Shown here piece by piece: positions 19,421 through 62,510 of a DNA stretch of 64,000 nucleotides. The notes beneath the pieces were generated by a model. The model was not told the DNA's origin, did not search any database, and was given only the letters and a program-made list of their open reading frames with translations. This DNA comes from Candidatus Thorarchaeota archaeon (lineage in GTDB: Archaea > Asgardarchaeota > Thorarchaeia > Thorarchaeales > Thorarchaeaceae): the NCBI GenBank assembly GCA_011364905.1, contig RDNZ01000003.1, positions 227 to 64,226 on the forward strand. Reading direction: 5' to 3'. A program made the translations under genes and the position numbers. Numbering within the stretch: the first letter of the stretch is position 1; the number at the start of each line of letters is the position of its first letter.

Positions 19421-19432
19421 TTACTCCACCAC

Positions 19433-20611: not shown

Positions 20612-20626
20612 TGTTGATTCTCCTTA

Positions 20627-21130: not shown

Positions 21131-21143
21131 TCATTCCACCTCT

Positions 21144-21725: not shown

Positions 21726-21787
21726 ATAATCGTCACCTATGTTTGGTTACATGTTGCATCTATAGAGCGATTCAAGGTAGTATCCAA

Positions 21788-21802
21788 GTTACGATTTGCA
21801 AC
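21788..21802. promoter_or_regulatory. Imperfect dyad GTTACGATTTGCAAC, with a near-identical copy at 10867-10881
   Basis: GTTACGATTTGCAAC (21788-21802, upstream of the monohaem cytochrome gene) and CTTACAATTTGCAAC (10867-10881, in the mutS/isf divergent gap) match at 13 of 15 positions, and both are followed by nTAT. The half-sites GTTRCAA and TTGCAAC are roughly inverted. Confidence 0.3.
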
Positions 21803-21923
21803 ATATGTCTCGTATAAGAGCATATTGGTTAACCGAGTTTTCTGCGGTCCCAAGATGAACAGTGTTAGTATCTCTTCCATTATGCAACAGATACTTTTGT
21901 GAGCTAAACATTTACTTCAATCT

Positions 21924-24834: not shown

Positions 24835-24938
24835 CTAAGGCTCACCATGGAATGATGACTGCTTCTGAATTGACTACGACATAGTATATAGTTATCCCAT
24901 TGGCTGTTTTTCTTGCCATCTGCAATTCCTATGTGGGT

Positions 24939-26276: not shown

Positions 26277-26302
26277 TCTCCTTTTCTTCCTGTTAATTCT
26301 TC

Positions 26303-27427: not shown

Positions 27428-27436
27428 TGTAACACC

Positions 27437-30116: not shown

Positions 30117-30401
30117 GTAGTGTAGTCCCCGATTCTTATATCGTCGGTCTTATCCCGGATATATCTCCCGGATAACGAACTCGGGGGTAGTCGACCCTGC
30201 TTAAAATCTTACGGAATGAAGAAGTGCACTATCGTTTAGACTGCTCGAAGGTTACAACTTACGTCCAAATAACCATGAATTAGTAGAAACTGTAACCAGT
30301 CATGTCATTCACTACTACAGATATTATATATGCGGATACAATACCAAATCATCCGTAACCATTCTATTTCAATTTGTAAGAGTAAGCTAACAATTTCAAG
30401 A

Positions 30402-30426
30402 GAAAAAGGGAACATATTTTTATTAG
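30402..30426 (+). promoter_or_regulatory. Candidate BRE/TATA element for the multihaem cytochrome gene
   Basis: GAAAAAGGGAACATATTTTTATTAG: a purine-rich stretch followed by an AT box, about 40-60 nt upstream of ATG 30465. Confidence 0.3.
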
Positions 30427-30464
30427 GCTGTTTGTGGAAAAATACTAACCCTATTCTAGGGACA

Positions 30465-31835: not shown

Positions 31836-31993
31836 ACGCTGCGAGAAACAAACATTTGTATGGGCGCCCAGATGCCTTAGGCATCTGGCATCCCTATTTT
31901 TCTTACAGCTGCTAGAAGTTCAACACAGCCACATCCGAGTTTTATTGATGGTGTGGAAAATCGCACAAACTATTCCACTGGGAAAGAAAGACA

Positions 31994-34171: not shown

Positions 34172-34192
34172 AAAGAAACAGGAGAGAGAATT

Positions 34193-36307: not shown

Positions 36308-36417
36308 ACAAACCAAATGTGCTAACTAATGGTCGAGCTTCTGGTTCGACCAACCACTCTTATTTCTCAAGAAGGGTTAATAGATGTCGCTTGTTTAGCC
36401 AGATAAGACAGCTCTGG

Positions 36418-37620
36418 ATGGAATCCAACTTGGCACAATTATATGATGTTGCAGTAGTAGGTGCTGGTCCTGCAGGTTCATCTACAGCAAGAGTTGTGGC
36501 CAAAGAGGGATTCCGAACTATTGTGATTGACAGACGCTCTAGTTTAGGTCTTCCTGTCCAGTGTGGCGAGTTAATCCCTACACCATCTGAAGCTCGCAAC
36601 TTGTTTCCCCGATCAAAAAGAATGCCTCGAGCGGTCCATGTTCCCAGCAGATTTGTGACAAATAAGACCAAGTTGATACGTCTGGTTTCCCCTAACGGAT
36701 CCGTCTACGAGTTTTCTTTCAACGCTAATATTATTGACAGAGCAGAGTATGATCCCTATCTGGCGCGCCAAGCTCAGGATGCGGGAGCCAAGTTCTTGAT
36801 TGAATCAACTCTGAAAAAGCGTTCTGCCAATAACAATCTGCTCATTAAGTCAGGGGTTTCAGAAACTGAAATCCTCTCAAAACTCGTTGTGGGAGCCGAT
36901 GGTGCTAACTCGGTCGTAGCACGGTCTCTTGGGCAACACTTCATTCACTCTGATAAAGACCTTAGCCCTTCACTTCAGTATGTCATGAGTGGCGCGGATG
37001 TTGATACCTCGGTCGTGGAAATGCATTTTGGCGGAAAAATTGCACCAGGTGGCTACGCATGGTGTATTCCGAAGGAGGATGGGATTGCCAATGTGGGATT
37101 CGGCATGAGACGATCTCTGGCCCGGGATGCTACACCACTTCGCGCATACCTTGAGAGATTCGCATTCAAAACTCTCTCATCATCGTTGAAGAATGCAAAA
37201 ATCTCGAGCCGAGTAGCTGCGATTATTCCTATGGGAGGACCATTAAGAAAGACTTGGACCAACAACGTACTTTTGGTTGGAGATGCTGCGGGTCATGTAA
37301 TGGCATCCAATGGTGGCGGGATTCCTACAGCCCTTTGTGGCGGTGAAATTGCCGGAGACGTGGTTTCTAAGCATTTGGAGAAAGGTACTCCGCTCTCTGA
37401 CTACGAACGCATTTGGAAAAAGGAGTATGGTAAGGAGCTCGAAACTGCGTTACGAGTCTTACGAGTAGCTGACACAGTGATGCCTTCAGATACAATTACT
37501 GACATTTGTATGAAACTCGCAGGAGTACGATTTCTTGAACCATTGATTAGATGTCGTCTTCCCGCTCCTGTTGATATAGCCTCTAAAACAGTGGTCAAGG
37601 TTCTCAGTCAATTCATGTAA
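36418..37620 (+). CDS. Geranylgeranyl reductase family flavoprotein (prenyl-chain reductase)
   Basis: Start re-assigned to MESNLAQLYDVAVVGAGPAGSS. Also LVVGADGANSVVA and GDAAGHVMASNGGGIPTAL. Confidence 0.8.
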   Translation: MESNLAQLYDVAVVGAGPAGSSTARVVAKEGFRTIVIDRRSSLGLPVQCGELIPTPSEARNLFPRSKRMPRAVHVPSRFVTNKTKLIRLVSPNGSVYEFSFNANIIDRAEYDPYLARQAQDAGAKFLIESTLKKRSANNNLLIKSGVSETEILSKLVVGADGANSVVARSLGQHFIHSDKDLSPSLQYVMSGADVDTSVVEMHFGGKIAPGGYAWCIPKEDGIANVGFGMRRSLARDATPLRAYLERFAFKTLSSSLKNAKISSRVAAIIPMGGPLRKTWTNNVLLVGDAAGHVMASNGGGIPTALCGGEIAGDVVSKHLEKGTPLSDYERIWKKEYGKELETALRVLRVADTVMPSDTITDICMKLAGVRFLEPLIRCRLPAPVDIASKTVVKVLSQFM

Positions 37621-37621: not shown

Positions 37622-38677
37622 CTAGTAGAGTCTCTTCATAGCAAAATTTGCCAGTAGCAAAAGCAAATCTTCATTTGCAAACCCATAACCTCGAATTGCT
37701 TCTTTTGCCTTCAGCATGAACTTTTTAGAAACCTCAATCGATTCCTCAACAGATCTGCTCTCACTGATTCTTTTAAGAGCATACTCCAAATCGCCATCAT
37801 TTAACTTTCGAACAAACTCCTCCTTCTGTTTGGAAGAGCATCTCTCTACTGCATGAGCAAGTACATAGTTGCTACGGCTGCCCCTAAGATCGGATAGTAC
37901 TGTCTTTCCGGTTCCGTTTTGAGTTGCAACAATGTCAAGAATGTCATCTCTGATTTGAAACGAATATCCGAGATTTTCAGAGTACTTGATTAATGCCTCT
38001 ATTTGGTTTTTGTCTGCCTTGCCAAGCATGGCTCCGACCTTGGCTGCTGCAGTCATGAATGAAACAGTCTTCATGCGAATAATCTCCAGTGCTGCATCAG
38101 TGGTATATGACTGAATCTTGTCCTGGCTTAGCAGAAGATCTGCGGCCTCACCTTCACACATCCTTATCCCTCCAGCTGCAACATATGTGAGAAGTTCAGG
38201 AGTCGACCTTTCTCCAATCAGCTTGATTGCGAGAGCGACCAACAAATCACCTGCAATAATCGCCATCTTTCTCCCGTACTTCTTATGTGTGGTTTCGACA
38301 CCCCTCCGAATGCTGTCTTCGTCAACGACATCATCATGAATCAGACTTGCTGTTTGAATGAACTCAGTAGCGACAGCAAATGGCAATGCATCAACGACTG
38401 ATCCCCCAACAGCTTCAGCGCAGAGAACAAGCAAAAGAGATCTCAATCGCTTTCCGCCCGCAAGAATGAGATGCCGCGTGGTCTCGTAGAGAATGGGCGG
38501 ATCTCCATTTTCATCTAGAAGACAGCGTTTAATCTCTTCATTGATGAGATTGATGCGGGTTCGTATCTTTTCGTTCTCAAGCAAACCTGATGCATCCATC
38601 AATCTCAGTGATTCTTCGTCTGCAGGAGACTTGGGACTTGAGTCAACAGAGGTTCGTTCTGACATTGATTGATACAC
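37622..38677 (-). CDS. Trans-polyprenyl diphosphate synthase, predicted long-chain product
   Basis: 351 aa. First Asp-rich motif LIHDDVVDED, second RDDILD. The residues at -5/-4 before the first motif are small (Ala and Ser in TASLIHDD), the pattern associated with long-chain products. Confidence 0.8.
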   Translation of the reverse strand: MYQSMSERTSVDSSPKSPADEESLRLMDASGLLENEKIRTRINLINEEIKRCLLDENGDPPILYETTRHLILAGGKRLRSLLLVLCAEAVGGSVVDALPFAVATEFIQTASLIHDDVVDEDSIRRGVETTHKKYGRKMAIIAGDLLVALAIKLIGERSTPELLTYVAAGGIRMCEGEAADLLLSQDKIQSYTTDAALEIIRMKTVSFMTAAAKVGAMLGKADKNQIEALIKYSENLGYSFQIRDDILDIVATQNGTGKTVLSDLRGSRSNYVLAHAVERCSSKQKEEFVRKLNDGDLEYALKRISESRSVEESIEVSKKFMLKAKEAIRGYGFANEDLLLLLANFAMKRLY

Positions 38678-38773: not shown

Positions 38774-39853
38774 TTGAGCAGATGTCTGGTGAACCAATTG
38801 AATTCCAGTGAAGGCACAGAATTAGAAAAGCCATCAAAAGTCCGTATATGGTTGGGTGAGATGAGGGCTCCTTTTCTTACAGGAGCAATTGTTCCTGTCA
38901 TACTTGGAACATGCGTTGCTTGGGCATCAACTGGTACATTCTTGCTTGACATATTCCTTCTGACCCTTGCTGCTGGAGTTTTTGTCCACATTGCTTCCAA
39001 TGTGGCCAATGATTACTATGACCACAAAAGCGGTGCTGATGACATCAATGTGGAGTTCGTTCGACCGTTCACCGGAGGGAGTCGGATGATCCAGAGAGGC
39101 TGGATGTCTCCCCGAGAAGTATTCGCCGAGGCAATGATCTTCTTTATTCTTGGAGGCGGCATCGGGATATACCTTGCATATACAAGAGGGATTATTGTTC
39201 TTTATCTTGGAATAATAGGCGTTGGATCAGGTTTCTTCTACACAGCACCTCCTTTTCGTTTTGTAAGTCGAGGGTACGGCGAGGTGTTCATAGGTCTGAA
39301 CTTCGGTGTACTCATGACTCTTGGAGCATATTTTGTTCAAACTCAGGTCTTGGCATGGGAGGCTGTATTTCCATCAATCCCGGTTGCAATCCTCATTACA
39401 GCGGTTCTGTACATCAATGAGTTTCCGGACCATGATGCTGATCGAGACTCTGGTAAAAGAACAATTGTTGTTAGACTTGGTCGGCAAAGAGCTGCAAAAG
39501 GCTATGTAGTCCTTATGGCCTCAGTCTATCTATCGATTCTCCTCCCTATACTGCTGCTCCTCACCAACTGGTACACAATACTTGGTATTGCGACCCTACC
39601 CGCTGCAGTCCTGGGGTCTCGCTATGCTCTTGCTCACTATGACCAGTCTCTCCCATTGACTCCTGCGTACGCGTCTACCGTCTTCAATCACTTATTTACA
39701 GGTCTTTTCCTATCCCTCTCCTATCTCCTAATAGGCTTGGGAAGACCGCCTATTTGCATAGTTCTGTGGGGATCCATCTGTCTGGCAATCTCTTTGATAT
39801 TCTACCTAATGACAGAGCGTAAAGTAAAAGCAATGGCTAATCCTCAAATTTAG
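38774..39853 (+). CDS. menA: UbiA-family prenyltransferase, MenA-like (1,4-dihydroxy-2-naphthoate polyprenyltransferase)
   Basis: 359 aa with 8-9 TM helices. NVANDYYDHKSGAD and INEFPDHDADRDSGKRT match the MenA Asp-rich motifs. The TTG start at 38774 is uncertain; GTG at 38789 is an alternative. Confidence 0.75.
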   Translation: MSRCLVNQLNSSEGTELEKPSKVRIWLGEMRAPFLTGAIVPVILGTCVAWASTGTFLLDIFLLTLAAGVFVHIASNVANDYYDHKSGADDINVEFVRPFTGGSRMIQRGWMSPREVFAEAMIFFILGGGIGIYLAYTRGIIVLYLGIIGVGSGFFYTAPPFRFVSRGYGEVFIGLNFGVLMTLGAYFVQTQVLAWEAVFPSIPVAILITAVLYINEFPDHDADRDSGKRTIVVRLGRQRAAKGYVVLMASVYLSILLPILLLLTNWYTILGIATLPAAVLGSRYALAHYDQSLPLTPAYASTVFNHLFTGLFLSLSYLLIGLGRPPICIVLWGSICLAISLIFYLMTERKVKAMANPQI

Positions 39854-39867: not shown

Positions 39868-40344
39868 CTAGGCTTTCCACTGGAAGAATCTCGCACCCTT
39901 CCAGAATGATATCTTCCGGGGTTTCACCTGAATAGCTATTCTGGATCCCATGGGATACCCAGGTCCAAGAAAGTGCATGTATTTTGCCAGGAACTCAACC
40001 ATGACAATATTGTCCGCTACCTCCATTTCAATGAGCTGTGCCCGTCCTTGGATCATCACCCCACGATTGCCAGCCGGGGACTTGGGATCTCTTCGGTCGA
40101 CAGTGACACAGACTCGAGTGTTTCTACGAATGTTCGCAACCTTTCGACTTGTTTTCGTTGATACCAAATAGATGGATTTTGAATCATCATCCCAAAGATA
40201 GAACATCGCTGTCAAATGGGGATCGCAACCTGATTCAACAGTCCCAAGGTAAGCAAAGAAGCCATTTTCAAGGATTTCAAGTGCTCCCTTTGGAATGTTC
40301 TTCAATTTGGATGTGTAAGCTTTGTGCGGTTTTGCTAGTAGCAT
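39868..40344 (-). CDS. PNPOx-like split-beta-barrel flavin/deazaflavin-binding protein
   Basis: 158 aa with a typical pyridoxamine-5'-phosphate-oxidase-fold sequence pattern (..AYLGTV..PHLTAMFYLWDD..IYLVSTKTSRKVANIRRNTRVCVTVD..). Confidence 0.65.
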   Translation of the reverse strand: MLLAKPHKAYTSKLKNIPKGALEILENGFFAYLGTVESGCDPHLTAMFYLWDDDSKSIYLVSTKTSRKVANIRRNTRVCVTVDRRDPKSPAGNRGVMIQGRAQLIEMEVADNIVMVEFLAKYMHFLGPGYPMGSRIAIQVKPRKISFWKGARFFQWKA

Positions 40345-40348: not shown

Positions 40349-41635
40349 TCACGCTCTCAACACTCTTGGTTTTGCTTCACGCCAGTATGTGATGTGTTCT
40401 GGTTCAATTCGAACCATGACCCTCGATATGAATGGCTTGTTCTGCCATGCTAGAGGCAGTTCTGCCACATTGGTTTCATAGTATTTCATGTATCTTGGAT
40501 ATTTCTGAGCAAACAATGAGCGAACTCGAACCATCCAAAGGCCATAGATGAACATTCTAGCTATGCCCATAGGCGTTATCTCACCAAGGATGAGTCCCTT
40601 TCCTTTTATCATAACAGCTCGGTTTCTCATAGGATTAGTGGAATCTCTCATGTCCACAAGGATGGAAACCTTGGGATTCTTTCTCACTATTCGATACTTT
40701 GCTGAGGCGACTGAAATTCCCACATAGATGTATTTTCCATCATAGACAAAGATCACAGGAGTCACATGTGGCTGTTCCTTATCGCATATTCCCACGTAGG
40801 CAAATCTCTCATTATGCAATATGCTCTCTACATCCGGCGGGAACCAAGGAACTGTTTCCATTGCAAGGAAACTAATGAATGAAAGAACCAATATCGAAAC
40901 CAGATATGCAAGAATTGCCAAAAAGAGCAAATCTGAATAAACAGCTAATGGCGCAAGAAGTACCGCCGATGCTCCCCAATAGAGGTTCACTGAATCCAAA
41001 AACTTGAGTGTTCGGACTTCGGAATACGCAGTATACTGTAGTCCTCTCCTTCTTCTTGCAGCATAGCTAAGCGCTATCGACCTTCGAGCAGCGAAAAGTG
41101 TAGTCATAAACGAAAGACCCAGTCTATAGCTAACATCCCATGCCAGAACAAGAACTAAGATGAATAGTAATGGATTGCCATAACCTTCCCCCAAGAAGTG
41201 TTCCAAGAACACAGGAGTCCTGATAGTGTAAACAATGACTACGACAAAGCAGAGTATACCTGCCACAAGCTCATATCTTCTCTTCATTAGCAGATCTTCT
41301 TTGTATTCTCGAAGCACATGAAGCTCCTGCTCATTCGTTGGATTCCTTAGCTTTCGCATCGAAGGAATGATGAATAGACAACCTGCAGACCAGACAACAG
41401 TATACATTATGATTAGGGAGCCAAGTATTGCAGATTCAAAGGGCATTTGAAAATAGACGAATGCAAAGATGCCCACTGCCTCGACAAGGAAAAGTTGTGC
41501 AATCACATCCCATGTTGGAGGTAGCCATTTGAATGGAGGGATGCGTTCTACAATCTCTTCATAGATCCATTTTCTTTGAGCTTGCTTTTGGCTTCCAGAA
41601 ACCACAGACATCATTTTGTAGCTCTGCACGGTCAT
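40349..41635 (-). CDS. Membrane protein (about 7 TM) fused to a C-terminal PNPOx-like split-beta-barrel domain
   Basis: 428 aa. The N-terminal 270 aa are hydrophobic. The C-terminal region, FAYVGICDKEQPHVTPVIFVYDGKYIYVGISVASAKYRIVRKNPKVSILVD.., is paralogous in pattern to the neighbouring 158-aa protein. Confidence 0.6.
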   Translation of the reverse strand: MTVQSYKMMSVVSGSQKQAQRKWIYEEIVERIPPFKWLPPTWDVIAQLFLVEAVGIFAFVYFQMPFESAILGSLIIMYTVVWSAGCLFIIPSMRKLRNPTNEQELHVLREYKEDLLMKRRYELVAGILCFVVVIVYTIRTPVFLEHFLGEGYGNPLLFILVLVLAWDVSYRLGLSFMTTLFAARRSIALSYAARRRRGLQYTAYSEVRTLKFLDSVNLYWGASAVLLAPLAVYSDLLFLAILAYLVSILVLSFISFLAMETVPWFPPDVESILHNERFAYVGICDKEQPHVTPVIFVYDGKYIYVGISVASAKYRIVRKNPKVSILVDMRDSTNPMRNRAVMIKGKGLILGEITPMGIARMFIYGLWMVRVRSLFAQKYPRYMKYYETNVAELPLAWQNKPFISRVMVRIEPEHITYWREAKPRVLRA

Positions 41636-41678: not shown

Positions 41679-42905
41679 CTACCCATAGATTTCATCAAGG
41701 CCGTCCCATGTCAACCCAAGTGCTTGAGCCACCAGAACAACTAAGTCTTTCACTGTCTTGCTGGAACCAGCCTGCGGCAATTGGTCGGCCATGAAGTCAA
41801 CGCAAGATGGACATCCTGCAGCAACCACGTTTGCATTTGTGGCTTCTATGTCCTCAACTTTCAGCCGGTTAATCTTCAAAGCAAAGTCTGCATCATATGC
41901 CCTGAGTACACCACCCGAACCACAACAGAAGCAGTTTTTCTTATTATGTGGCAACTCCTCGAATGTGACTCCAGGGAGATATTCCAGTACCTTTCTAGGC
42001 TCCTCAAAGAATCCGGTATTCCGACCTGCGTCACAACCATCATGAAAAGTGACTGTCATGTCAAGTGGAGTGTTAAGCCCCGTCAATTTTCCTCTATCAA
42101 GTAAGTCTGCAAGATATTGATAGCCATAGAGTATCTCGAAACCATGGTCAATCCCCAAGAATTCATGATACTCATGTGCCCACATCTTGTAGCATCCTGG
42201 GCAGTTGGTGAATATCCGCTCGACACCCAGTTCTTTGTATTTCTGGATATTGTGCTCTGCAAGAGCTCGTGCTCCCTCAAAATCTCCAGACATAATCAGG
42301 GGTGCACCGCAGCAATATTCCTCTTCACCAAGTAGAGTGTACTCTTCGCCAATCTTATCCATTATCAAAGTGGACGCAATTGTGGCTTGAATTGATACGC
42401 CTCGAAATGATGATGCACACCCAACGAAGAAGGCAGTCTTTGCTGGTGTTCCCTGTTTATCTAGCAGGTCATCCTCATTAGGAGTCCAGTATGACCAACC
42501 TTCGATTCTATCCATTTGCGCTTGTCCTTGAATATTGTGACTTTTGAGAAGCGTTTCTTTTGCCATGTTCAACTCTTCTGGCCACATCCCCCGCTTCATG
42601 AATTCAGAGCGCATCGCTTGGTAGATCTTGACGAATGGGATGTCGACCTGACAGACCTCTTCACAACCACCACAAAGCGTGCACCCAAAAATGCCATTTC
42701 TCAATCCTTCAAGTCCTTCATTGGGTTTGATGCGACCCTGCATCAATGCCCGAGTCAATAGCATCTTTCCCTTTCCAGAATAAGTGTCCCGCCGCTTGAC
42801 CTTGTAGGTCGGGCAGGCTCCGTGGCCAACTTGGCAAAAACTGCATTGAGCACATGTATACGCATAGTCTTGGAGGTCAAAATCATTGAGTGTCTGAAAT
42901 TCCAT
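41679..42905 (-). CDS. CCG-domain Fe-S oxidoreductase (GlcF/HdrD-like), cassette E, divergent from the FAD-oxidase::NuoB gene
   Basis: 408 aa. CAQCSFCQVGHGACP, CTLCGGCEEVCQ, YCCGAPL..CPGC, and HDGCDAGR..CCGSGG..CPSC. Confidence 0.85.
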   Translation of the reverse strand: MEFQTLNDFDLQDYAYTCAQCSFCQVGHGACPTYKVKRRDTYSGKGKMLLTRALMQGRIKPNEGLEGLRNGIFGCTLCGGCEEVCQVDIPFVKIYQAMRSEFMKRGMWPEELNMAKETLLKSHNIQGQAQMDRIEGWSYWTPNEDDLLDKQGTPAKTAFFVGCASSFRGVSIQATIASTLIMDKIGEEYTLLGEEEYCCGAPLIMSGDFEGARALAEHNIQKYKELGVERIFTNCPGCYKMWAHEYHEFLGIDHGFEILYGYQYLADLLDRGKLTGLNTPLDMTVTFHDGCDAGRNTGFFEEPRKVLEYLPGVTFEELPHNKKNCFCCGSGGVLRAYDADFALKINRLKVEDIEATNANVVAAGCPSCVDFMADQLPQAGSSKTVKDLVVLVAQALGLTWDGLDEIYG

Positions 42906-43117: not shown

Positions 43118-45058
43118 ATGGTCCTGAAACAAAAGCCAAAAACGAAACTCGAAGAGATTTTTGGAGACCGCCTTATTACAGAGAAGTACGAACTGATTCT
43201 ATTCGGTCAAGATGTTGGTTCTCTTCCAAAGCAAGTAGGCTGGCTCATGAACACAAAACCTGATGCCATTGTCCAGCCCACAACTCCTGAAGAAATTTCT
43301 GCAATCTATGAAGTCGCAAACACATACAAAATCCCTCTGGTCCCTCGAGCTGCTGGAACATCTGGGTACGGTGGCGCTATCCCCCGAAAAGGCGGCATAG
43401 TTGTTGATATGCGTCGCATGGACAAGATACTTGAGGTTGATAGCGATAACCTGACAGTAACCGTGGAACCAGGCATATCTTGGGCAAATCTTCAGTTTGA
43501 GTTGAATAGGGAGGGTCTGGACACTAGGTGCTATCCATCGTCTGGCATATCTGCTACCGTGGGTGGCTGGGTGTCTCAGGGCGGAGATGGTATAGGGTCT
43601 CTTAAGTATGGAAACGTCAACAAGAACGTCGTCAAACTAGAGGTAGTTCTTCCTACAGGAAAGATAGTCACGACAAAGGATCTTGACCTATTCTGCGAAA
43701 CCGAAGGAATCCTGGGGATTATTACCAAAGTCACCCTGAAGATTAAACCTTTGACTCCTATGAAAGTGATAGTTGCCAGTTTCGAAGAAAACTATCAGAT
43801 GGTCCTGGCAATAGAGAAGATACTGGAAGACGGGCCTCTCCCGTACACCATCAAGTTTGAAGAATCAAAATACACTGACCTGAAGAAGGCAATTTGGGAG
43901 GGAGAAAAACCATTCCCGATTCCTGTTCATCATGGTTCATTGATGATCGTATATGAGGGAGATGAGGATGAGATTGAGGAAGGTGTCCAGGTAGTTCGAG
44001 AAGTGACTGAGATGTATCGCGGTCATCTCTACGATGATGAATTTGCAGAGCATGAGTGGAGCCAGCGCTACTATCCTATGAAGATCAAGAAACTTGGACC
44101 AACTCTTGTTGTGGGTCAGGCCTTCGCTCCACTGGAGAATCTTACTTCTGTCCTAGATGACTTCCAGTTTGAACAAGCCTCTGCGAAAGGAGGCATTGAT
44201 GGCTATGTGAACTCCAAGTCCGGGGTCACAATGATGGGTTACTTCCTTGAGGATGAGCGGAGAATGTTCTACATGTTCTCCTGGTCTCAGAGTTTCGTCA
44301 TATTCAAGATCGCTCAACGTCATGGCGGACATGTACACTCAACCGGCATCTGGTTCGCTAACTATAGTCGGCAATACTTCGGGGACCGACGGCTTGCTCG
44401 TATCAGAGCGGCAAAACTCAAATGGGATAAGAAGGAAATATCCAATCCGGGAAAGGTCTTTGCCTTTTGGTTGCCCTTCATTCTCAAAATTGGAAAATAC
44501 TTCCTGTGGATATTCTATGACCTGTTCAGAAACGGATTCGGTCGCATAGCACCTATTCTGCTCAAATGGCTCCAGAATGTTCCACCCTTGAAATGGTTAC
44601 TTAGATGGGGCAGAGCACATAGTCCCTGGCCAATGCAGTACGGCATAGGTTGTTGCATGGTCGATGGTGCAGCCGGTATCGCGCCACGTTGGGACTTTGA
44701 AAGGTTCGGAATGCTTCCACTCTTTGGTCCTCGACAGACGGATGTCCTCTGGATCTCAGGTTCACTCACTAAGAAGATGGCTCCAAGACTCAGACGTATA
44801 TATGAGCAAATGCCTGAGCCAAAGTATGTCATCGCCTTCGGTCAGTGCGTTGCTTCGGGAGGCCTCTTCTGGGAAGGATACAGCCTGATGACACCACCGG
44901 ACAAAGTTGTCCCCGTCGATGTCTACCTTCCTGGTTGCCCACCGAAACCAGCGGACTTCATTCGGGCTCACATTATTTTGCAGAACAAGATTCGAGCGGG
45001 CACAACTAACTGGCAGCGGAAATACGAGAACCAAGATGCTATGGGGATGATGAAATAA
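43118..45058 (+). CDS. Fusion: GlcD-like FAD-linked oxidase (aa 1 to about 448) + hydrophobic linker + NuoB-like [4Fe-4S] subunit (aa 495 or so to 646)
   Basis: 646 aa in one uninterrupted frame. The N-terminal part has IPLVPRAAGTSGYGGAIPRKGGIVVDM, YPSSGISATVGGWVSQGGDGIGSLKYG, YPMKIKKLGPTL and ..SNPGKVF. The C-terminal part has SPWPMQYGIGCCMVD, VIAFGQCVASGG and LPGCPPKP, the four Cys positions of the NuoB/PSST cluster N2 site. Confidence 0.85.
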   Translation: MVLKQKPKTKLEEIFGDRLITEKYELILFGQDVGSLPKQVGWLMNTKPDAIVQPTTPEEISAIYEVANTYKIPLVPRAAGTSGYGGAIPRKGGIVVDMRRMDKILEVDSDNLTVTVEPGISWANLQFELNREGLDTRCYPSSGISATVGGWVSQGGDGIGSLKYGNVNKNVVKLEVVLPTGKIVTTKDLDLFCETEGILGIITKVTLKIKPLTPMKVIVASFEENYQMVLAIEKILEDGPLPYTIKFEESKYTDLKKAIWEGEKPFPIPVHHGSLMIVYEGDEDEIEEGVQVVREVTEMYRGHLYDDEFAEHEWSQRYYPMKIKKLGPTLVVGQAFAPLENLTSVLDDFQFEQASAKGGIDGYVNSKSGVTMMGYFLEDERRMFYMFSWSQSFVIFKIAQRHGGHVHSTGIWFANYSRQYFGDRRLARIRAAKLKWDKKEISNPGKVFAFWLPFILKIGKYFLWIFYDLFRNGFGRIAPILLKWLQNVPPLKWLLRWGRAHSPWPMQYGIGCCMVDGAAGIAPRWDFERFGMLPLFGPRQTDVLWISGSLTKKMAPRLRRIYEQMPEPKYVIAFGQCVASGGLFWEGYSLMTPPDKVVPVDVYLPGCPPKPADFIRAHIILQNKIRAGTTNWQRKYENQDAMGMMK

Positions 45059-45636
45059 TGCGCATTCGGCAAGATAGTGATCCTTACTGCATGCTGTTTC
45101 TAGGACTAGTAGTGCTGACAGCATTCATCTTCAACTTCATATACCTCGGCATCCTATACCCATCAGCATCACTTCTTATTTCAGGATCACTAAGCTCGAT
45201 AATCAGTGGTATGTCTATTCTCATGGTATTCCTCCTGACAGGGTATTTAAGACCAGAGAAAGGCGCGGGAAAGAATGTGATGTTTGGTTTCTCTATTCTG
45301 GGAAGCTTCTTCTTTGTGGTATTTGTTAGTTGGTTTGTGGATTCTGTCCCTGCTGCAGGAGACTGGCTCTACCTTTCGTTCTGGGGACTCGGAGGTTCAA
45401 TTCTGACAGCAGCGGGCTTTTCTATGATGCACAACTATGAGGAGAGCTATTCGCCGGGAATTATGGACACAAGCAAACTTCACTATGGGCCGGAGCCTGA
45501 ACCAGAACCGGAACCAGAACCTGAGGCAGAAGAAGCCGAAGTCGTGTCTACTAATTCCGAAGCTCCAGCAGCCAGCGATTCACCTGATCAGGTTGAAACA
45601 ACAGCTGAAACATCAAAAGATGCTGAAACTGAGTAA
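45058..45636 (+). CDS. 4-TM membrane protein with an acidic Pro/Glu-repeat tail, translationally coupled to the fusion gene
   Basis: 192 aa. Its ATG overlaps the upstream stop (TAATG). Four hydrophobic helices are followed by PEPEPEPEPEPEAEEAE... No family recognised. Confidence 0.55.
   Translation: MRIRQDSDPYCMLFLGLVVLTAFIFNFIYLGILYPSASLLISGSLSSIISGMSILMVFLLTGYLRPEKGAGKNVMFGFSILGSFFFVVFVSWFVDSVPAAGDWLYLSFWGLGGSILTAAGFSMMHNYEESYSPGIMDTSKLHYGPEPEPEPEPEPEAEEAEVVSTNSEAPAASDSPDQVETTAETSKDAETE
45490..45525 (+). repeat. In-frame (CCN-GAR)x6 hexanucleotide repeat encoding (Pro-Glu)6
   Basis: ccggagcctgaaccagaaccggaaccagaacctgag, read directly from the sequence. Confidence 0.9.
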
Positions 45637-45645: not shown

Positions 45646-46011
45646 TTATTCGTGCAGCCAACTGTAGGCTGCAAAGGAGATAAGAACTCCAAATGCCATC
45701 AGTGCAAACAAGATTATTGCCACTATGAGGGAGTACAATGTGAATATGAGGTATGTATGGATACCTCCAAGAATCCCTGTGAGCATAGTAAGGCCAACTC
45801 TGCTAGAACGAGTGGTAGATGAGGCGAATCCAAATGTTGATGCCACAAAGAGCATTCCTCCAAGGACAAGAACCCAATAGAATATCAAATTCCTTACAAC
45901 CACTTCAGTGGTCATGATAGTCCAGAAGTAGACTCCCAGTAGAGCCATTCCAATCAATAAAGCAAGATAATAGAAGAATGTGCCTTCTTCGCCACGAACC
46001 AAGTGAATCAC
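45646..46011 (-). CDS. Hypothetical 4-TM membrane protein
   Basis: 121 aa, entirely hydrophobic helices, convergent with the 45058 gene. No family recognised. Confidence 0.45.
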   Translation of the reverse strand: MIHLVRGEEGTFFYYLALLIGMALLGVYFWTIMTTEVVVRNLIFYWVLVLGGMLFVASTFGFASSTTRSSRVGLTMLTGILGGIHTYLIFTLYSLIVAIILFALMAFGVLISFAAYSWLHE

Positions 46012-46372: not shown

Positions 46373-46840
46373 ATGATGCAAACTGAAAGACTGTTTAGGC
46401 AATTCATCCCAGTCCTGATCTGGGTCATATTGGCCATTGTCCTTGTCGTTGTGATGCTGCTTGCATCATGGGTATTGCGGCCTCATGTATTGCAGAACTC
46501 TGAGAAGACATCAACCTATGAGTGCGGCGAAGAACCAATTGGCCCAGCACGAGTCTCGTATCCCTACAACTACTTCATCTACACAGTGCTTTTCGTTGTG
46601 GTTGATGTCATGGGTGCATTTCTCTGGATTCTAACAGCATCGGACATTCTTTGGGTTGGCAGTGCCAAGTACAGTGTGATTCTGCAAGTTGCATTGTTTG
46701 TGCTGCTCGTGATGGGAGGAATTTGGTATGTGATGAAGAAGCTCCCAGAAGCAGCCCTGGATGGTAAAGAAACCCTGGAGATTTATCGAAAGGCAAAAGC
46801 TGAGAGAGAGAAAGAACAACATCATATGGGAGGTCATTAG
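46373..46840 (+). CDS. nuoA: Complex I subunit NuoA-like
   Basis: 155 aa with 3 TM helices and the YECGEEPIG motif. Confidence 0.85.
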   Translation: MMQTERLFRQFIPVLIWVILAIVLVVVMLLASWVLRPHVLQNSEKTSTYECGEEPIGPARVSYPYNYFIYTVLFVVVDVMGAFLWILTASDILWVGSAKYSVILQVALFVLLVMGGIWYVMKKLPEAALDGKETLEIYRKAKAEREKEQHHMGGH

Positions 46841-46842
46841 AG

Positions 46843-47496
46843 TTGCAGTATACTGATTGGTTTCTAAGCATATTCGAACCTGTGGAATTCCTCCTAGTTG
46901 CGGCTATTGTGCTTGTACTTGCCTATCTCGCGCTGGAACACAAAGAGATAGTGTACGCAGCATTCTTCTTTGGTTTCATGGCCTCATTCGTGGCTGCTAT
47001 CTTTCTGCTACTAGAGGCTCCTTTCGTAGCCGGTATGCAGATTGCAGTGTATACCGGGGGAATAACGGCACTCATCATTTTTGCCGTTCTACTATTACCT
47101 AGAGCTCAAGACTCATCGCTTGAGCTGTTTGCGACACCCCGGAAACGTCAGCTAGGCTTCTTGATTGCAGCGTTAGTAATGATTCTCTCCGGCCTGCTTG
47201 CTTTTATCTTTCCATGGGCCGAGTCTTTTGATGATGCTGTTGTTACTATCTCGAATAACCTGAACGATCTTGCGATGTGGCTCTGGTCCTATAATGGAGT
47301 CTATGTTCAGTTGATTGCTTTGATTATGGTCACTTCGATGGTTGGCGCCGTTGCGCTTCTGAAGATGGACAAGGCTGAACAATTGAGTGAGATTCGTGGC
47401 GAGTTCGGTATTGAAGCCAAGCCCGATTTCGAGGAAGCTGAACCTTCCAGTAATGAAGAGGTCGCAGATGAGGATTCTGAGGAGGGCGATGACTAA
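46843..47496 (+). CDS. nuoJ: Complex I subunit NuoJ-like with an acidic C-terminal tail
   Basis: 217 aa with a TTG start. Carries the GMQIAVYTGGITALIIFAVLL block. The tail is EEAEPSSNEEVADEDSEEGDD. Confidence 0.8.
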   Translation: MQYTDWFLSIFEPVEFLLVAAIVLVLAYLALEHKEIVYAAFFFGFMASFVAAIFLLLEAPFVAGMQIAVYTGGITALIIFAVLLLPRAQDSSLELFATPRKRQLGFLIAALVMILSGLLAFIFPWAESFDDAVVTISNNLNDLAMWLWSYNGVYVQLIALIMVTSMVGAVALLKMDKAEQLSEIRGEFGIEAKPDFEEAEPSSNEEVADEDSEEGDD

Positions 47497-47807
47497 TGGT
47501 TCCACTCTCTTGGTATCTCGTTCTGGCGTTCATGCTGATAGGCTTGGGAGGATATGGTATGATGGTAAAGAGGAACCTAATCCGTATTCTCATCGGAGCC
47601 GAAATAATGGGAAACGGAGTCAACATCGCCATAATCGCTATGTCGCTCTATAGCCCCGTATTCACCTTCACGGGGCAAGGACTGATTATTCTAGTGATTT
47701 CCGTTGCGGCTGCACACACAGCATTAGCCATGGTTCTGATGCTTGTGTACAATCGTCGTTACGACACAGTGGACCTCGGACACCCAGTTGTCAAGGAGGA
47801 ATCGTAA
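47496..47807 (+). CDS. nuoK: Complex I subunit NuoK-like
   Basis: 103 aa with 3 TM helices and KRNLIRILIGAEIMGNGVNI. Confidence 0.85.
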   Translation: MVPLSWYLVLAFMLIGLGGYGMMVKRNLIRILIGAEIMGNGVNIAIIAMSLYSPVFTFTGQGLIILVISVAAAHTALAMVLMLVYNRRYDTVDLGHPVVKEES

Positions 47808-47808
47808 G

Positions 47809-48336
47809 ATGGCTGACACTTCTACAATGAAAGCTTCAACATTCGGGAGATCCGTCATCAATAAACTCCCCGAGGTAACCTCGAATCTCTTAAGCGACAG
47901 TAGGATCGAACTTGTAGTTCCAGCCAGCAAGATTCGCGATGTAGTTCAGCTGGTTGATGAGGAGCTGAGTGATGCTCTCCCTGAGTCAGTTTTTGGTGTC
48001 GATCTTCAGAATGATCAATACAACCTCATCTACATCTTCTGGTCTTGGTCAAACCGATTGTTGGTCCAACTGCGAGTATCTCTGGAGGGTGAGAACCCAG
48101 AGATTGATAGTACCTGCGATATCTTTCCAGGTCTCGAGTGGCATGAACGAGAGACCCGTGAGATGTTTGGAATTGAGTTTAGGAATCATCCAGATCCTCG
48201 CCTCCTTCTCTTACCTGACGAACTCGAAGGGGCATATCCACTACGAAAGAGGTTCCAGTCTGATCTAAGTAGATTGGATGAAACCGGTATCAATCCTCCA
48301 AAGCCCCGACCTAAAGAAGGAGGTGAGCAAAAGTGA
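47809..48336 (+). CDS. nuoC: Complex I subunit NuoC-like
   Basis: Start re-assigned to MADTSTMK, 2 nt after the nuoK stop. Carries LEWHERETREMFGIEFRNHPDPRLLLLPDELEGAYPLRKRF. Confidence 0.85.
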   Translation: MADTSTMKASTFGRSVINKLPEVTSNLLSDSRIELVVPASKIRDVVQLVDEELSDALPESVFGVDLQNDQYNLIYIFWSWSNRLLVQLRVSLEGENPEIDSTCDIFPGLEWHERETREMFGIEFRNHPDPRLLLLPDELEGAYPLRKRFQSDLSRLDETGINPPKPRPKEGGEQK

Positions 48337-49469
48337 GTCCGGATATTCTAGATGGAAGCATGGATATTTGGTTTGGTCCGCAGCACGTATCGGCTCATGG
48401 TTGGGCAACCAAACTGACCTTGGTGGGCGACTACATTGTAGAGTGTGATCCCAACGCGGGCTATTTCCATCGGTCAGCAGAGAAAGTACTTGAATTCAAG
48501 AATTTCAGACAAGGACCTCTTGTTCTCGAGAGAATGTGCATGCTTGAAGCATTCCTTGCAGAATATCCCTATGTCGCAGCGGTTGAGAAGATTGCGGAGT
48601 TGGAGATTCCTGAACGTGCAAAGGTCATGCGTACAATTATGATGGAAATGTCACGTATTCATAGCATCCAGTTTTGGTGGGGCCAATTCAATGCTGAACT
48701 TGGATTCTTCACAATGGCTCTTTGGCCTTGGGTAGACCGTGAATACTCGCTTGATGTTTTCGAGGAGCTGACAGGTTCGCGACATACGGTTTCATTCTCA
48801 ACTCCCGGCGGAGTGAAATACGACTTTACTGAAAAGGTCATGACGCAGCTCAACCGTGCAATCGACCGTTTTGAAGATAGGCTGGTGAAGTTCAAGGACA
48901 TGCAGCTTGGTAGCCCCACATTTAGAGCGCGGACTGAGAATATAGGTCTGTACGATGTTAAGCAGGGGCTAAAGTGGGGTCTGAGCGGACCGCCGATTAA
49001 GGCTTGTGGTGTTCCGATGGACCTTCGAAAGGATGATCCTGACCCGAACCTTGCTTACGACATGGTAGACTTTGATGTACCCATTACAGAGAATCCTGAA
49101 CATCCTGGTCAGAGCGACGCTTTTGACAGGATGGAGCAAAGATTTGCTGAGGCTGAAACAGCAGTCAGTATCATTAAACAGCTAATTCCTCAGATTCCTG
49201 AGGGTGACATTGTTGACCCCAAGGCTCGCGGCAAGGCAAATAGACTACCAGAGGGAGAGGCTTATGCTCGAGTTGAAGGGACACGAGGCATTACTTCTGT
49301 ATGGCTCAAGACTGAGGAAAAAGGCCAAACTGCATATCGCGCTAAGATTCGTGGTCCTTGTATTGCCTCTTATTATGCCTTGAAGGATTTAGTGCCTGGT
49401 TCGAAGTTCGCAGATTTCATCGTGATTTTCGGGAGTCTGGATCCATATCCGGGGTGGTGGGATCGATGA
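48333..49469 (+). CDS. nuoD: Complex I subunit NuoD-like (no NiFe-binding CxxC pairs)
   Basis: 378 aa. GTG start with GGAGGTGA upstream. GPQHVSAHG at the N-terminus and DPYPGWWDR at the C-terminus, where hydrogenase large subunits carry DPCxxC. Confidence 0.85.
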   Translation: MSPDILDGSMDIWFGPQHVSAHGWATKLTLVGDYIVECDPNAGYFHRSAEKVLEFKNFRQGPLVLERMCMLEAFLAEYPYVAAVEKIAELEIPERAKVMRTIMMEMSRIHSIQFWWGQFNAELGFFTMALWPWVDREYSLDVFEELTGSRHTVSFSTPGGVKYDFTEKVMTQLNRAIDRFEDRLVKFKDMQLGSPTFRARTENIGLYDVKQGLKWGLSGPPIKACGVPMDLRKDDPDPNLAYDMVDFDVPITENPEHPGQSDAFDRMEQRFAEAETAVSIIKQLIPQIPEGDIVDPKARGKANRLPEGEAYARVEGTRGITSVWLKTEEKGQTAYRAKIRGPCIASYYALKDLVPGSKFADFIVIFGSLDPYPGWWDR

Positions 49470-50632
49470 TTGGAGGTGTCATGTTGCAGTTCGATTTCTT
49501 TGCATGGCTGGCAGGGATTCCTGACTGGATTCTTGGGGTCCTGAAATGGATTTACGGCATCTTTAGTTATGTCTTCCACTGGATTTTCAACGTGTTTACT
49601 TGGATATGGACAACCATCTTCATTCCGAAGAACTTCATGTTCCTCTTCCGGGCTGTGATATTCCCTGGGCTCATATTCGTTGTCATGGCTCTGATATGGG
49701 CTGTCTGGTTCACCAGAAAACTGTGGGGACGTATTCAGGATAGGCGCGGCCCGCTCCATATGGGTAAGTATGGTGGCCTTCAATTGTTTGCTGATGCCAT
49801 CAAACTGATTGGAAAGGAAACTATCATTCCTGATAAAGCCAAGAGATGGATGTTTAGGTTCCTTCCTGGACTCCTTCTAGTTATTGTTCTTCTACCGTTC
49901 GCGTTCATTCCATGGGACACTGTTTCAGCTGTGGACGGTGGTTGGGCAATCTCTGATCTCAATGTCAGCCTTGTGCTTGCGTTCGCATTCCTGACAGCAG
50001 TCCCAGTAATTGCACTGTTAGCAGGTTGGGTCAGCGGTTCGAAGTACACCCTGATTGGAGGATTCAGAGCCGCTAACAATCAGTTTGCCGCTGAGATTCC
50101 GATGATTATATCCACCATCGGATGTGCGTTTCTTGCCCGTTCACTAAGCATCTTTGACATCTCAATGGCACAGTCGAGTTTGTGGTTTGCGATTCTCCTG
50201 CCCATCAATCTCGCTACATTCTTGGTTGCTGCAATAGCTTCTGTGGGAGTATTCCCATTTGATGCTCCTGTTGCAGATTCGGAGATAATATTTGGCTGGA
50301 GGACAGAGTACACAGGAATTTACTTCACGTTGACTTACTTCGCAGAATTCGCAGAACAGATGCTCTACTCAGCTCTGATTGTTGCTTTATTCTTGGGTGG
50401 ACCTAATGGACTTCCGTTCCTTCCTGGTCCAGTGAACTTCATAATCAAGTTCCTAATCACATTCTTCTTCTTCGTCTTGGTCAGTTCGTCATTCCAAAGG
50501 CTGCGACAAGACCAGATTGTGTACTTTTGTTGGAAGTATTTACTTCCACTTGCTGTGTTGAACGTAATCGTCATCATGTTTGCAGTAGTCTATCTACCTG
50601 GACTAATGCTACCATTACTGGGGGTTGGCTAA
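49466..50632 (+). CDS. nuoH: Complex I subunit NuoH-like
   Basis: Start re-assigned to the ATG that overlaps the nuoD stop (ATGA). Carries RKLWGRIQDRRGPLHMGKYGGLQLFADAIKLIGKE. Confidence 0.85.
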   Translation: MIGGVMLQFDFFAWLAGIPDWILGVLKWIYGIFSYVFHWIFNVFTWIWTTIFIPKNFMFLFRAVIFPGLIFVVMALIWAVWFTRKLWGRIQDRRGPLHMGKYGGLQLFADAIKLIGKETIIPDKAKRWMFRFLPGLLLVIVLLPFAFIPWDTVSAVDGGWAISDLNVSLVLAFAFLTAVPVIALLAGWVSGSKYTLIGGFRAANNQFAAEIPMIISTIGCAFLARSLSIFDISMAQSSLWFAILLPINLATFLVAAIASVGVFPFDAPVADSEIIFGWRTEYTGIYFTLTYFAEFAEQMLYSALIVALFLGGPNGLPFLPGPVNFIIKFLITFFFFVLVSSSFQRLRQDQIVYFCWKYLLPLAVLNVIVIMFAVVYLPGLMLPLLGVG

Positions 50633-50635
50633 ACA

Positions 50636-51067
50636 ATGGGTTTCTTCAGCGTACTAGGTGACTGTTTTCAGATTTTGAAACATACGTTTAGACAGGTCTT
50701 CAAAAGACCCTTCACTTACTTCTACCCCTTCGAGGATAGAATCTATCCGGAGCGGACTCGGGGTCGGCACATACACGTACGAGAGAACTGCACTGCATGT
50801 GCTCAGTGTGTTCGAATCTGTCCTGTGGTAGCAATACGAATGGACAAAGAAGACAAAATGTATGAGAAAGACTGCGCCTTGTACTTCGATTATACACGAT
50901 GTATCTTCTGCGGTCTCTGTGTTCAAGCCTGCAGATTCGAAGCGCTCTTCCACACTCCTGTCGTGGACCTAAGCGAAGGCGATCGGGACGACTTAATCTA
51001 TGGGCCTGACAAGATCGAGACACTTGATAGGGACCCACTGAAGTGGCGAGGAAGGAGGTTCCGTTAA
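50636..51067 (+). CDS. nuoI: Complex I subunit NuoI-like (2x[4Fe-4S])
   Basis: 143 aa with CTACAQCVRICP and CIFCGLCVQAC. Confidence 0.85.
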   Translation: MGFFSVLGDCFQILKHTFRQVFKRPFTYFYPFEDRIYPERTRGRHIHVRENCTACAQCVRICPVVAIRMDKEDKMYEKDCALYFDYTRCIFCGLCVQACRFEALFHTPVVDLSEGDRDDLIYGPDKIETLDRDPLKWRGRRFR

Positions 51068-62473: not shown

Positions 62474-62510
62474 AGAACCGCTGTTAGATGCAGCGGTTCT
62501 TCTCTTTTTT
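62474..62510. terminator. Hairpin plus T-tract between convergent genes
   Basis: AGAACCGCTG-ttagatg-CAGCGGTTCT is a perfect 10-bp stem. It is followed by TCTCTTTTTT, 30 nt after the trpB2 stop, and the T-tract abuts the stop of the opposite gene. Confidence 0.55.

Follow-up and report, generated by a model that had tools for sequence, protein, structure and literature searches.

We showed that, in a 64,000-nucleotide stretch of DNA from a Candidatus Thorarchaeota archaeon (contig RDNZ01000003.1; the whole stretch is referred to below as the window), a single gene joins a flavin adenine dinucleotide (FAD)-dependent dehydrogenase to NuoB, the subunit that carries the last iron-sulfur cluster (N2) of complex I-like enzymes. 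This gene is the only nuoB of a locus which encodes a complex I-like pump. The fusion is genuine and conserved, and it is restricted to Thorarchaeota. As to its role, we tentatively favour, with less than even confidence, a ferredoxin-driven complex I-like pump bearing a tethered, self-contained dehydrogenase (the FAD protein plus an HdrD-like Fe-S protein), which is probably linked to menaquinone and would be located beside the quinone chamber.

The fusion gene is an uninterrupted open reading frame (ORF) of 646 codons, with an ATG start and a TAA stop, which consists of the following parts:

43118..45058, + strand, fusion gene (FAD dehydrogenase, helical linker and NuoB), 646 aa, defined by the ORF and its translation, Pfam and NCBIfam
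43259..43675, + strand, FAD_binding_4 domain, residues 48-186 (Pfam 4.5e-42, 138/139 profile positions)
43763..44458, + strand, divergent FAD-oxidase_C cap/substrate domain, residues 216-447 (Pfam 1.3e-7)
44459..44584, + strand, linker, residues 448-489 (42 residues), two amphipathic helices leading into NuoB helix H1
44585..45007, + strand, NuoB/PSST domain, residues 490-630, with N2 ligands C512, C513, C577 and C607

The original prediction had described one 646-codon frame containing a complete FAD_binding_4/FAD-oxidase_C protein together with an entire NuoB that retains the four N2 cysteines, and had proposed that each half be compared with profile models. This comparison bore out the description, as both the FAD and the NuoB profiles of Pfam and NCBIfam were matched, and its coordinates and motifs all proved correct when re-checked (NPGKVF at nt 44444-44461, GCCMVD at 44648-44665, GQCVASGG at 44840-44863 and GCPPKP at 44933-44950). 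In an AlphaFold2 (AF2) model built from a 70-sequence alignment (mean pLDDT 78, pTM 0.70), the pLDDT of the FAD_binding_4 domain was mostly 85-97. The NuoB half contains an Oxidored_q6/NuoB Pfam match (residues 524-617, 6.5e-23; PF01058 score 81, cut-off 27) and exceeds the NCBIfam cut-offs of NF005012 (177.4 bits vs 116) and TIGR01957 (167.8 vs 142.7). When it was compared with the PDB using phmmer, the matches were NdhK (5e-44), NDUFS7 (3e-42) and Nqo6 (5e-41), with the cysteines aligned. C512, C513, C577 and C607 occupy the same alignment columns as the four N2-binding cysteines in NdhK and NDUFS7, the adjacent C512 and C513 being the tandem Cys-Cys characteristic of complex I, and all four are invariant among 45 fusion sequences. 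The NuoB half is therefore predicted to carry a complete N2 [4Fe-4S] site.

A gene of this kind might be an artefact, in which a chimeric assembly or a frameshift has joined two separate genes. A search of 5.8 billion proteins yielded approximately 45 clusters of full-length homologues (71-90% identity), nearly all exactly 646 aa long. They are derived from NCBI, JGI, ENA and Logan assemblies, are almost all labelled Thorarchaeota, and include one from a closed 3.16 Mb Thorarchaeota genome. The protein encoded in the window is identical to NCBI NHI88210.1, whose cluster includes the 2016 genome SMTZ1-45 and is annotated in the databases only as “hypothetical” or “NuoB”. The original prediction had called for confirmation of the junction in independent assemblies and for a search for the same fusion and synteny in related metagenome-assembled genomes (MAGs). 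Both gave positive results: the fusion gene is ungapped and free of stop codons in five independent loci (closed genome CP070761.1 and four other MAG loci), and the locus is conserved in all of them. The GC content is even across the fusion region. Moreover, the ratio of nonsynonymous to synonymous change (pN/pS) across the five loci was 0.18 for the FAD part and 0.09 for both the linker and NuoB, with synonymous sites saturated (pS ~0.8); purifying selection on the linker is as strong as on NuoB. No point was found in favour of an artefact, and in view of the independent assemblies, the closed chromosome, the even composition and the selection acting on the linker, this explanation was rejected as practically excluded.

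Among 1.84 billion 50%-identity representatives, exactly one (P0026) contains both domains. A remoter FAD-NuoB fusion would be expected to rank near the top among these representatives and none did, which indicates that the fusion forms a single 50%-identity cluster. A scan of a genome collection with the NuoB domain gave at least four Asgard loci among the matches listed. One candidate, P0437 (tandem Oxidored_q6), was set aside as an irrelevant plant sequence. No description of a FAD_binding_4-NuoB fusion was found in full-text literature searches, in agreement with the earlier impression that none had been described; the fusion is present in databases yet unremarked, and it is lineage-restricted.

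The closest stand-alone NuoB proteins (62-65% identity; loci L004 and L006) are orphans from more distant archaeal lineages, one adjoining hypC/D/E/F maturation genes and the other accompanied by nuoA only. The possibility that these represent a second nuoB copy in the fusion genomes is unsupported, given their orphan contexts and the more distant lineages from which they come.

The fusion gene is preceded by a divergently oriented gene for an Fe-S protein and by a group of genes for the quinone side chain:

36319-37620, + strand, GGR-type prenyl reductase, quinone side-chain gene
37622-38677, - strand, polyprenyl synthase, quinone side-chain gene
38774-39853, + strand, MenA (TIGR00751 120 bits, cut-off 102)
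41679..42905, - strand, HdrD-like Fe-S partner, 408 aa, with Fer4_8 and two CCG domains (Pfam)

The Fe-S partner (hereafter the CCG protein) has two 4Fe-4S cysteine sets (18/21/24/31 and 75/78/81/85) and two CCG sets (163/198/199/235/238 and 291/327/328/365/368). Of its 19 cysteines, 18 are kept in 54/54 aligned sequences and the remaining one, C325, in 48/54. Its best NCBIfam models are TfrB, LdhH and GlpC, and all equivalogs, including HdrB, score below their cut-offs; no HdrE-like gene was found beside it in the NCBIfam scan. The orthologues constitute a Thorarchaeota-specific group (66-93% identity), after which identity falls to 35%. In fused as well as unfused genomes, the CCG gene adjoins the gene for the FAD enzyme, and its earlier designation as the cognate partner of the fusion can be retained, since the pair stays together in genomes of either kind. 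GGR, polyprenyl synthase and MenA adjoin the CCG/FAD pair in loci L002, L003, L007 and L010. For the UbiA-family gene of this group, assignment as a lipid DGGGP synthase was rejected in favour of MenA, the DGGGP synthase models being far weaker.

The linker was confirmed to be amphipathic, as originally described: it comprises 42 residues, is helical in the AF2 model and lacks a transmembrane (TM) segment. Its Kyte-Doolittle maximum is 1.39 (residues 448-489; TM threshold 1.6) and no segment of it attains this threshold, the amphipathic character being strong. The modelled helices span residues 451-472, 474-486 and 489-501, the last of which is NuoB's own N-terminal helix. The origin of the linker is indicated by two unfused orthologues of the dehydrogenase (P0050 and P0051; 498 and 499 aa, 55% identity), which align over its whole length and end at “FPPLKW”, the point at which stand-alone NuoBs start to align. 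Because these proteins align through the linker and stop where NuoB begins, the tether corresponds to the membrane tail with which the dehydrogenase itself ends, unless the 498-aa forms are former fusions that have been truncated. At their loci (L002 and L003), the CCG partner is conserved (67% identity), as is the vicinity of menA, and no nuo genes are present within approximately 10 kb on either side. The FAD/CCG pair can therefore work alone. For the same reason, the 498-aa proteins were rejected as a split form of the fusion with an adjacent nuoB.

The tail is not peculiar to these proteins. Of the FAD paralogues encoded in the window, those of 573 and 608 aa end in two or three TM helices and those of 493 and 497 aa in short amphipathic tails, so that membrane association is a trait of the FAD clade. 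A further relative, P0362 (MFQ6051053.1, encoded outside the window; 867 aa), consists of an NrfD/PsrC anchor followed by a FAD domain that shares 41% identity with that of the fusion. Judging from the TM and amphipathic tails, the NrfD/PsrC fusion and the MenA neighbourhood, the clade appears to be linked to the membrane and to quinone. Taken together with the CCG partner, these features point to a membrane-bound, probably menaquinone-linked dehydrogenase that is able to work without a pump.

The position of the tether is informative. In E. coli complex I, the N-terminal segment of NuoB takes on an ordered structure only where it meets the membrane arm, and the stretch after it builds the quinone-site wedge (PMC8357420). 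Since the flavoenzyme is joined to the NuoB N-terminus at this interface, it would lie beside the substrate chamber, at the heel of the enzyme and on the cytoplasmic face of the membrane. By analogy, it should sit away from the tip at NuoI, the site of action of NuoEFG, FpoF or ferredoxin.

In a Foldseek comparison, the fold of the FAD part matched mouse LDHD (E 1e-29; TM-score 0.82-0.84 normalised to LDHD) and, next after it, alkyl-DHAP synthase (AGPS; TM-score 0.65-0.69). In mouse LDHD, H398, H405 and E442 bind Mn2+ (Mn/Zn ligands), Arg347 binds the substrate carboxylate and His443 is the catalytic base (PMC10589216). The metal triad is not present in the fusion, which has Tyr, Val/Thr and Val at the respective positions. 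It is also missing from the unfused orthologues, the 573-aa family, the relatives of ~1020 aa (FAD-Fer4-CCG fusions; 35-38% identity) and all four paralogues of the window. Equivalents of the carboxylate-binding Arg (R317) and the catalytic His (H407) are kept, and R317, H405 and H407 are invariant among the fusions; the window paralogues have Tyr at the catalytic His position. The two-domain VAO/PCMH fold and the Arg/His pair of D-2-hydroxyacid dehydrogenases are therefore found here, and their metal triad is not. The “GlcD-type” label of the original prediction proved too specific: the GlcD equivalog was not reached (TIGR00387 145.6 bits vs 567.9; NF008408 101 vs 897), the metal ligands are absent from the whole clade, no GlcE-like gene was identified, and the CCG partner matches GlcF weakly (55 bits vs 333). 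Judged by the retained residues, the substrate is probably a carboxylate.

The divergent cap domain (Pfam 1.3e-7) and the missing canonical metal ligands might suggest that the FAD domain no longer turns over substrate and has a mainly structural or regulatory function, as an anchor, assembly factor or redox sensor. This seems highly unlikely, however, in view of the pN/pS of 0.18, a FAD-binding profile that is matched from end to end, the invariance of R317, H405 and H407, and the conserved cysteines of the CCG partner; moreover, the metal site is missing throughout the clade, unfused members included.

Comparison with characterised flavoenzymes places the protein more precisely. It shares the fold, the FAD domain and the Arg and His equivalents with the D-2-hydroxyacid dehydrogenases of the VAO superfamily (LDHD 8JDE, D2HGDH, GlcD) and with alkyl-DHAP synthase. 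Unlike LDHD, D2HGDH and GlcD, it lacks the Mn/Zn ligands, possesses a C-terminal membrane tail and has a CCG Fe-S protein as its output. The same FAD clade and Fe-S module occur in the YdiJ-like FAD-Fer4-CCG fusions of ~1020 aa, and CCG anchors are known from GlpC/LdhH; in contrast to the YdiJ-like fusions, the Fe-S module here is encoded by a separate gene and the FAD C-terminus is joined to NuoB.

The pump itself is encoded by a run of genes which starts 1.3 kb downstream of the fusion:

46373-46840, + strand, nuoA (Pfam Oxidored_q4)
46843-47496, + strand, nuoJ (Pfam Oxidored_q3)
47496-47807, + strand, nuoK (Pfam Oxidored_q2)
47743-48336, + strand, nuoC (Pfam)
48333-49469, + strand, nuoD (Pfam)
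49358.., + strand, nuoH ORF, true start probably near 49470 (378 aa as called in locus L001)
50636-51067, + strand, nuoI, with both CX2CX2CX3C motifs
51068-52606, + strand, NuoM-like subunit (TIGR01972 302 bits vs 264)
52617-54905, + strand, NuoL, 762 aa, with a 26-residue duplication in the lateral-helix region
54907-56532, + strand, NuoM
56463.., + strand, NuoN ORF

The order A-J-K-C-D-H-I-M'-L-M-N is conserved in loci L001 and L007-L009. The run (46373-58082) had been described as devoid of nuoB and nuoEFG, and this was borne out by Pfam and NCBIfam, with the NuoM-like gene as an addition: no nuoB is present in it, nuoE, nuoF and nuoG were not found in the operon or elsewhere in the window, and the operon contains no FpoF. 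Four antiporter-like subunits are thus encoded (NuoM-like, NuoL, NuoM and NuoN). In NuoL, two copies of the motif DDxhhDG, at residues 680 and 706, start exactly 26 residues apart (window 54654-54752), and 108 aa separate the last two TM helices. This internal duplication lengthens the lateral helix, as expected for spanning a fourth antiporter-like subunit. NuoL also carries a His/Glu/Asp-rich loop insert, HTESHEEHDSDEEKSDSHEEHDAHEEESETHEEEEHHDDHHQTPHD (residues 505-550; window 54129-54266), which from its composition might bind metal.

NuoD is the most unusual subunit of the core. Its best PDB match is MbsL of the Pyrococcus MBS complex (6u8y_L, 6.8e-57), ahead of the complex I 49 kDa subunits (9e-50). 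The two residues which bind the quinone head group are His38 and Tyr87 (T. thermophilus numbering), and Tyr87 does so in every characterised complex I (PMC7684303). The His38 equivalent is kept here (GPQHVSAHG), whereas Tyr87 is replaced by Met (ERMCMLE vs DRLDYVS), which, together with the missing NuoEFG, sets the enzyme apart from canonical complex I. A single relic NiFe cysteine is left (C69), which corresponds to C85 of MbsL; five loci share the motif ER[ML]C[ML]LEAF. As only one of the four Ni-Fe cysteines remains, an active [NiFe] hydrogenase was rejected.

With MBS (6U8Y; PMC7684303) the complex therefore shares the C85-equivalent cysteine and the missing Tyr87 equivalent. Unlike MBS, it has a NuoB with the CC motif and a full set of four ligands (MbsJ, with its shortened loop, has one Cys too far away, and its proximal cluster has only three Cys ligands), its NuoD keeps His38 and has lost the C-terminal cysteine, its NuoA, NuoJ and NuoK are of the complex I type, and no MbsA/B/C-like or Mrp-type Na+ module genes were seen with Pfam. 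Judged by its MbsL-like NuoD, the complex therefore looks like an intermediate of MBS and complex I, whereas its NuoB side is wholly of the complex I type.

The 11-subunit enzymes that lack NuoEFG (cyanobacterial NDH-1 and the Fpo-like complexes of Methanothrix and Methanomassiliicoccales) have the same A, B, C, D, H, I, J, K, L, M, N set and no NADH module, and they share with the present complex a NuoB with a tandem-Cys N2 site (NdhK being the best match) and a two-cluster NuoI, the presumed entry point of ferredoxin. They differ in that, here, NuoB is fused to a 450-residue flavoenzyme, nuoB lies outside the nuoA-N operon, the gene order is A-J-K-C-D-H-I-M'-L-M-N, NuoD is without Tyr87 and an extra NuoM-like subunit is present. 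The latter is found, together with a lengthened NuoL lateral helix, in the “2M” complex I of Nitrospira and Manganitrophus, which has been tied to a large ferredoxin/quinone potential span (PMC9040806). The enzyme described here departs from “2M” complex I in being archaeal (Asgard), in carrying a dehydrogenase on NuoB and in its non-canonical NuoD site.

The retention of both NuoI clusters in the absence of NuoEFG and FpoF, combined with four antiporter-like subunits and a lateral-helix duplication matching that of “2M” enzymes, favours ferredoxin as the route into the pump. In the model that we tentatively prefer, reduced ferredoxin would donate electrons via the two clusters of NuoI to N2 and hence to menaquinone, driving proton pumping. 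The tethered FAD/CCG pair would oxidise a carboxylate substrate, probably of the hydroxyacid type, as a self-sufficient oxidoreductase, and would send the electrons along its Fe-S clusters into the nearby menaquinone pool that the pump also uses, in a step that does not itself pump protons. The amphipathic tail, spliced to the N-terminal helix of NuoB, would hold this unit beside the NuoB/NuoD/NuoH chamber, and the fusion would fix the stoichiometry and position of a second electron entry point. In this scheme, the ferredoxin donor, the menaquinone acceptor and the lack of direct transfer from FAD/CCG to N2 are inferred.

The original prediction had viewed the FAD/CCG pair differently, as the input module of the pump, from which substrate electrons would pass from FAD through the CCG clusters to N2 and on to quinone, coupled to proton translocation. 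The covalent link to the N2 subunit, an operon without any other input module, the four cluster sites of the CCG protein, which could form a wire, and a linker constrained like a catalytic domain are all compatible with this proposal. We nevertheless consider it unlikely. The attachment is at the NuoB N-terminus, at the membrane interface, and the NuoI clusters are retained, whereas every input module known to us docks at the NuoI/NuoG end. The unfused pair occurs where no nuo genes are nearby, and the FAD domain lacks the metal site of hydroxyacid dehydrogenases. Moreover, the translocation of ~5 H+ per 2 e- would need ~400 mV, while established redox values allow ~115 mV for the step from hydroxyacid/oxoacid to menaquinone. 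A small driving force had already been mentioned as a caveat; with four antiporter-like subunits and an extended lateral helix, this caveat is upheld and becomes decisive against a hydroxyacid-to-menaquinone pump.

A further possibility is that the complex operates without quinone, as a physical embodiment of the “Fpo-associated HdrD/GlcD” idea: electrons would flow from ferredoxin through NuoI and N2 to the CCG protein, which would reduce a disulfide or another soluble acceptor, with the FAD domain acting as a second donor to the CCG site or as part of that site. In Bathyarchaeia, Methanomethylicia and Korarchaeia, GlcD and HdrD have been proposed to act as pairs with Fpo-like complexes (PMC10667645, PMC6421429); a pairing of Dld with HdrD has been suggested in Sifarchaeia and Jordarchaeia (PMC9723677), and for deep Asgard lineages Hdr-like domains have been reported on MBH-like complexes (bioRxiv 10.1101/2024.07.04.601786). 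Like the locus studied here, the GlcD/Dld-HdrD pairs comprise a FAD_binding_4 gene beside a gene with Fer4 and two CCG domains, near a NuoEFG-less complex (PMC10667645, PMC6421429, PMC9723677). In those cases the association was deduced from gene content only; here it is covalent to NuoB, the lineage is non-methanogenic and menA is adjacent. The loss of Tyr87 from NuoD, the relic cysteine shared with MbsL, MBS as the best structural-database match and the complete HdrB/HdrD-type cysteine set of the CCG protein also speak for an acceptor other than quinone. On the other hand, MenA, polyprenyl synthase and GGR are conserved beside the pair, the FAD clade is elsewhere fused to NrfD or to TM anchors, NuoB has the tandem CC of complex I and not the spacing of MBS or hydrogenases, NuoD keeps His38, and the window revealed neither mcr nor a CoM/CoB context. 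On balance, a quinone-free enzyme appears doubtful.

More generally, it is a serious possibility, although not a probable one, that the FAD/HdrD-like pair is a true redox module wired to N2 from the NuoB side, in a membrane-proximal position, and thus represents a new class of complex I module. If so, two designs can be envisaged: a pump powered by ferredoxin in which an acceptor other than quinone is reduced at the CCG/FAD site, or a pump on which two electron inputs converge. The fusion would then also provide the first physical (Rosetta-stone) evidence for the hypothesised Fpo-like-HdrD/GlcD complexes of uncultured archaea.

Finally, the pump might run in reverse, with FAD/CCG reducing menaquinone and the proton-motive force driving electrons from menaquinol to ferredoxin for CO2 reduction or the formation of H2 or formate. 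There is a precedent in the 2M-type complexes of Nitrospira and Manganitrophus, which have been proposed to run from quinol to ferredoxin (PMC9040806); a tether close to the quinone chamber would channel quinol, and the presence of five FAD/CCG pairs in the window suggests many mid-potential donors. By standard energetics, however, moving ~5 protons for each electron pair would consume more ATP than could be regained by substrate-level phosphorylation from hydroxyacid oxidation, no independent source of proton-motive force was identified, and the multihaem cytochrome c and maturation gene of the window point to forward respiration. Reverse electron transport therefore seems distinctly improbable.

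Several observations weigh against the model of a ferredoxin-driven pump with a tethered menaquinone-linked dehydrogenase. Menaquinone reduction in the chamber is unproven, because NuoD is MbsL-like at the site of the missing Tyr87 equivalent. Within the window, only MenA and the side-chain genes were found and not a full menaquinone pathway. The complete HdrB/HdrD cysteine set of the CCG protein would fit disulfide chemistry equally well, and the electron-transfer distance from the CCG clusters to N2 may be short. The features explained least well by mere reduction of a shared pool are the covalent tether and the strong constraint on the linker.

Complex I-like enzymes are thought to diversify by exchanging distal input modules on a conserved NuoB/D/H/I core. 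In the case described here, the subunit of the last cluster has a second redox enzyme covalently joined to it, at the other end of the core, close to the membrane. A gene fusion firmly documents that two proteins are physically associated, whereas the link between GlcD/HdrD and NuoEFG-less complexes has so far been inferred from gene content. Moreover, since its NuoD looks intermediate between MBS and complex I (relic cysteine, His38, no Tyr87), the complex is informative for the transition from hydrogenase through MBS to complex I. Its occurrence in Asgard archaea is also of significance, as the energy metabolism of these organisms bears on models of eukaryogenesis, and the fusion offers a single defined target for learning what such complexes oxidise and reduce.

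Four further genes in the immediate neighbourhood deserve mention:

39868..40344, - strand, PPOX-class (FMN/F420-type) small flavoprotein, tentative member
40349..41635, - strand, DUF7530 membrane domain (~6 TM) fused to a PPOX-like flavin domain (Pfam, NCBIfam, TM scan), tentative member
45058..45636, + strand, small membrane protein, 192 aa, 3-4 TM, with an acidic PE-repeat tail; its start overlaps the stop of the fusion (TAATG)
45646..46011, - strand, small membrane protein, 121 aa, 3-4 TM (51-55% identity), position kept in L001 and L007-L009

The DUF7530-PPOX gene follows immediately after the CCG gene in the same orientation, with synteny in L001, L007, L008 and L010. Both PPOX genes are present at these four loci and not at the unfused loci L002 and L003, and the two flavoproteins may be extra membrane subunits. 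The 192-aa membrane protein keeps its position in L001 and L007-L009 and matches no family in Pfam or NCBIfam. The conserved order of the whole region is GGR, polyprenyl synthase, MenA, PPOX, DUF7530-PPOX, CCG (-), fusion (+), small TM protein, second small TM protein (-) and nuoA-nuoN.

Upstream, the window contains four more FAD_binding_4/CCG pairs of the same metal-triad-less clade (14383-30116, - strand): CCG405+FAD493, FAD573+CCG392, FAD608+CCG399 and CCG374+FAD497, two of the FAD proteins having C-terminal TM helices. Among them are an amine-oxidase-type flavoprotein (24939-26276), a DUF2231 membrane protein (20627-21130) and uncharacterised ORFs (21144-21725 and 28920-30116). The adjacent region (30330-36307, + strand) encodes a multihaem cytochrome c of 501 aa (c552/c554/c7 matches), an uncharacterised 725-aa protein with an N-terminal hydrophobic segment, and a CcsA/ResC-type cytochrome c assembly protein of 704 aa. 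These genes represent cytochrome c maturation in an Asgard archaeon and hint at anaerobic respiration.

A block of ~52 kb between MutS (8151-10751) and an ACD-like CoA ligase (62509-63897) contains all five FAD/CCG pairs together with the cytochrome, quinone and nuo genes. At the unfused loci L002 and L003, the MutS and ACD flanks are only ~8 kb apart and enclose just GGR, polyprenyl synthase, MenA, CCG and FAD, which suggests that a respiratory island was inserted or deleted as a large block between these flanks. Immediately downstream of nuoN (58105-60737, - strand) are genes for a PAS-GAF-PAS histidine kinase and a Ras-family GTPase (185 aa, Pfam Ras 1.4e-43), the latter belonging to a group of small GTPases that is typical of Asgard archaea.

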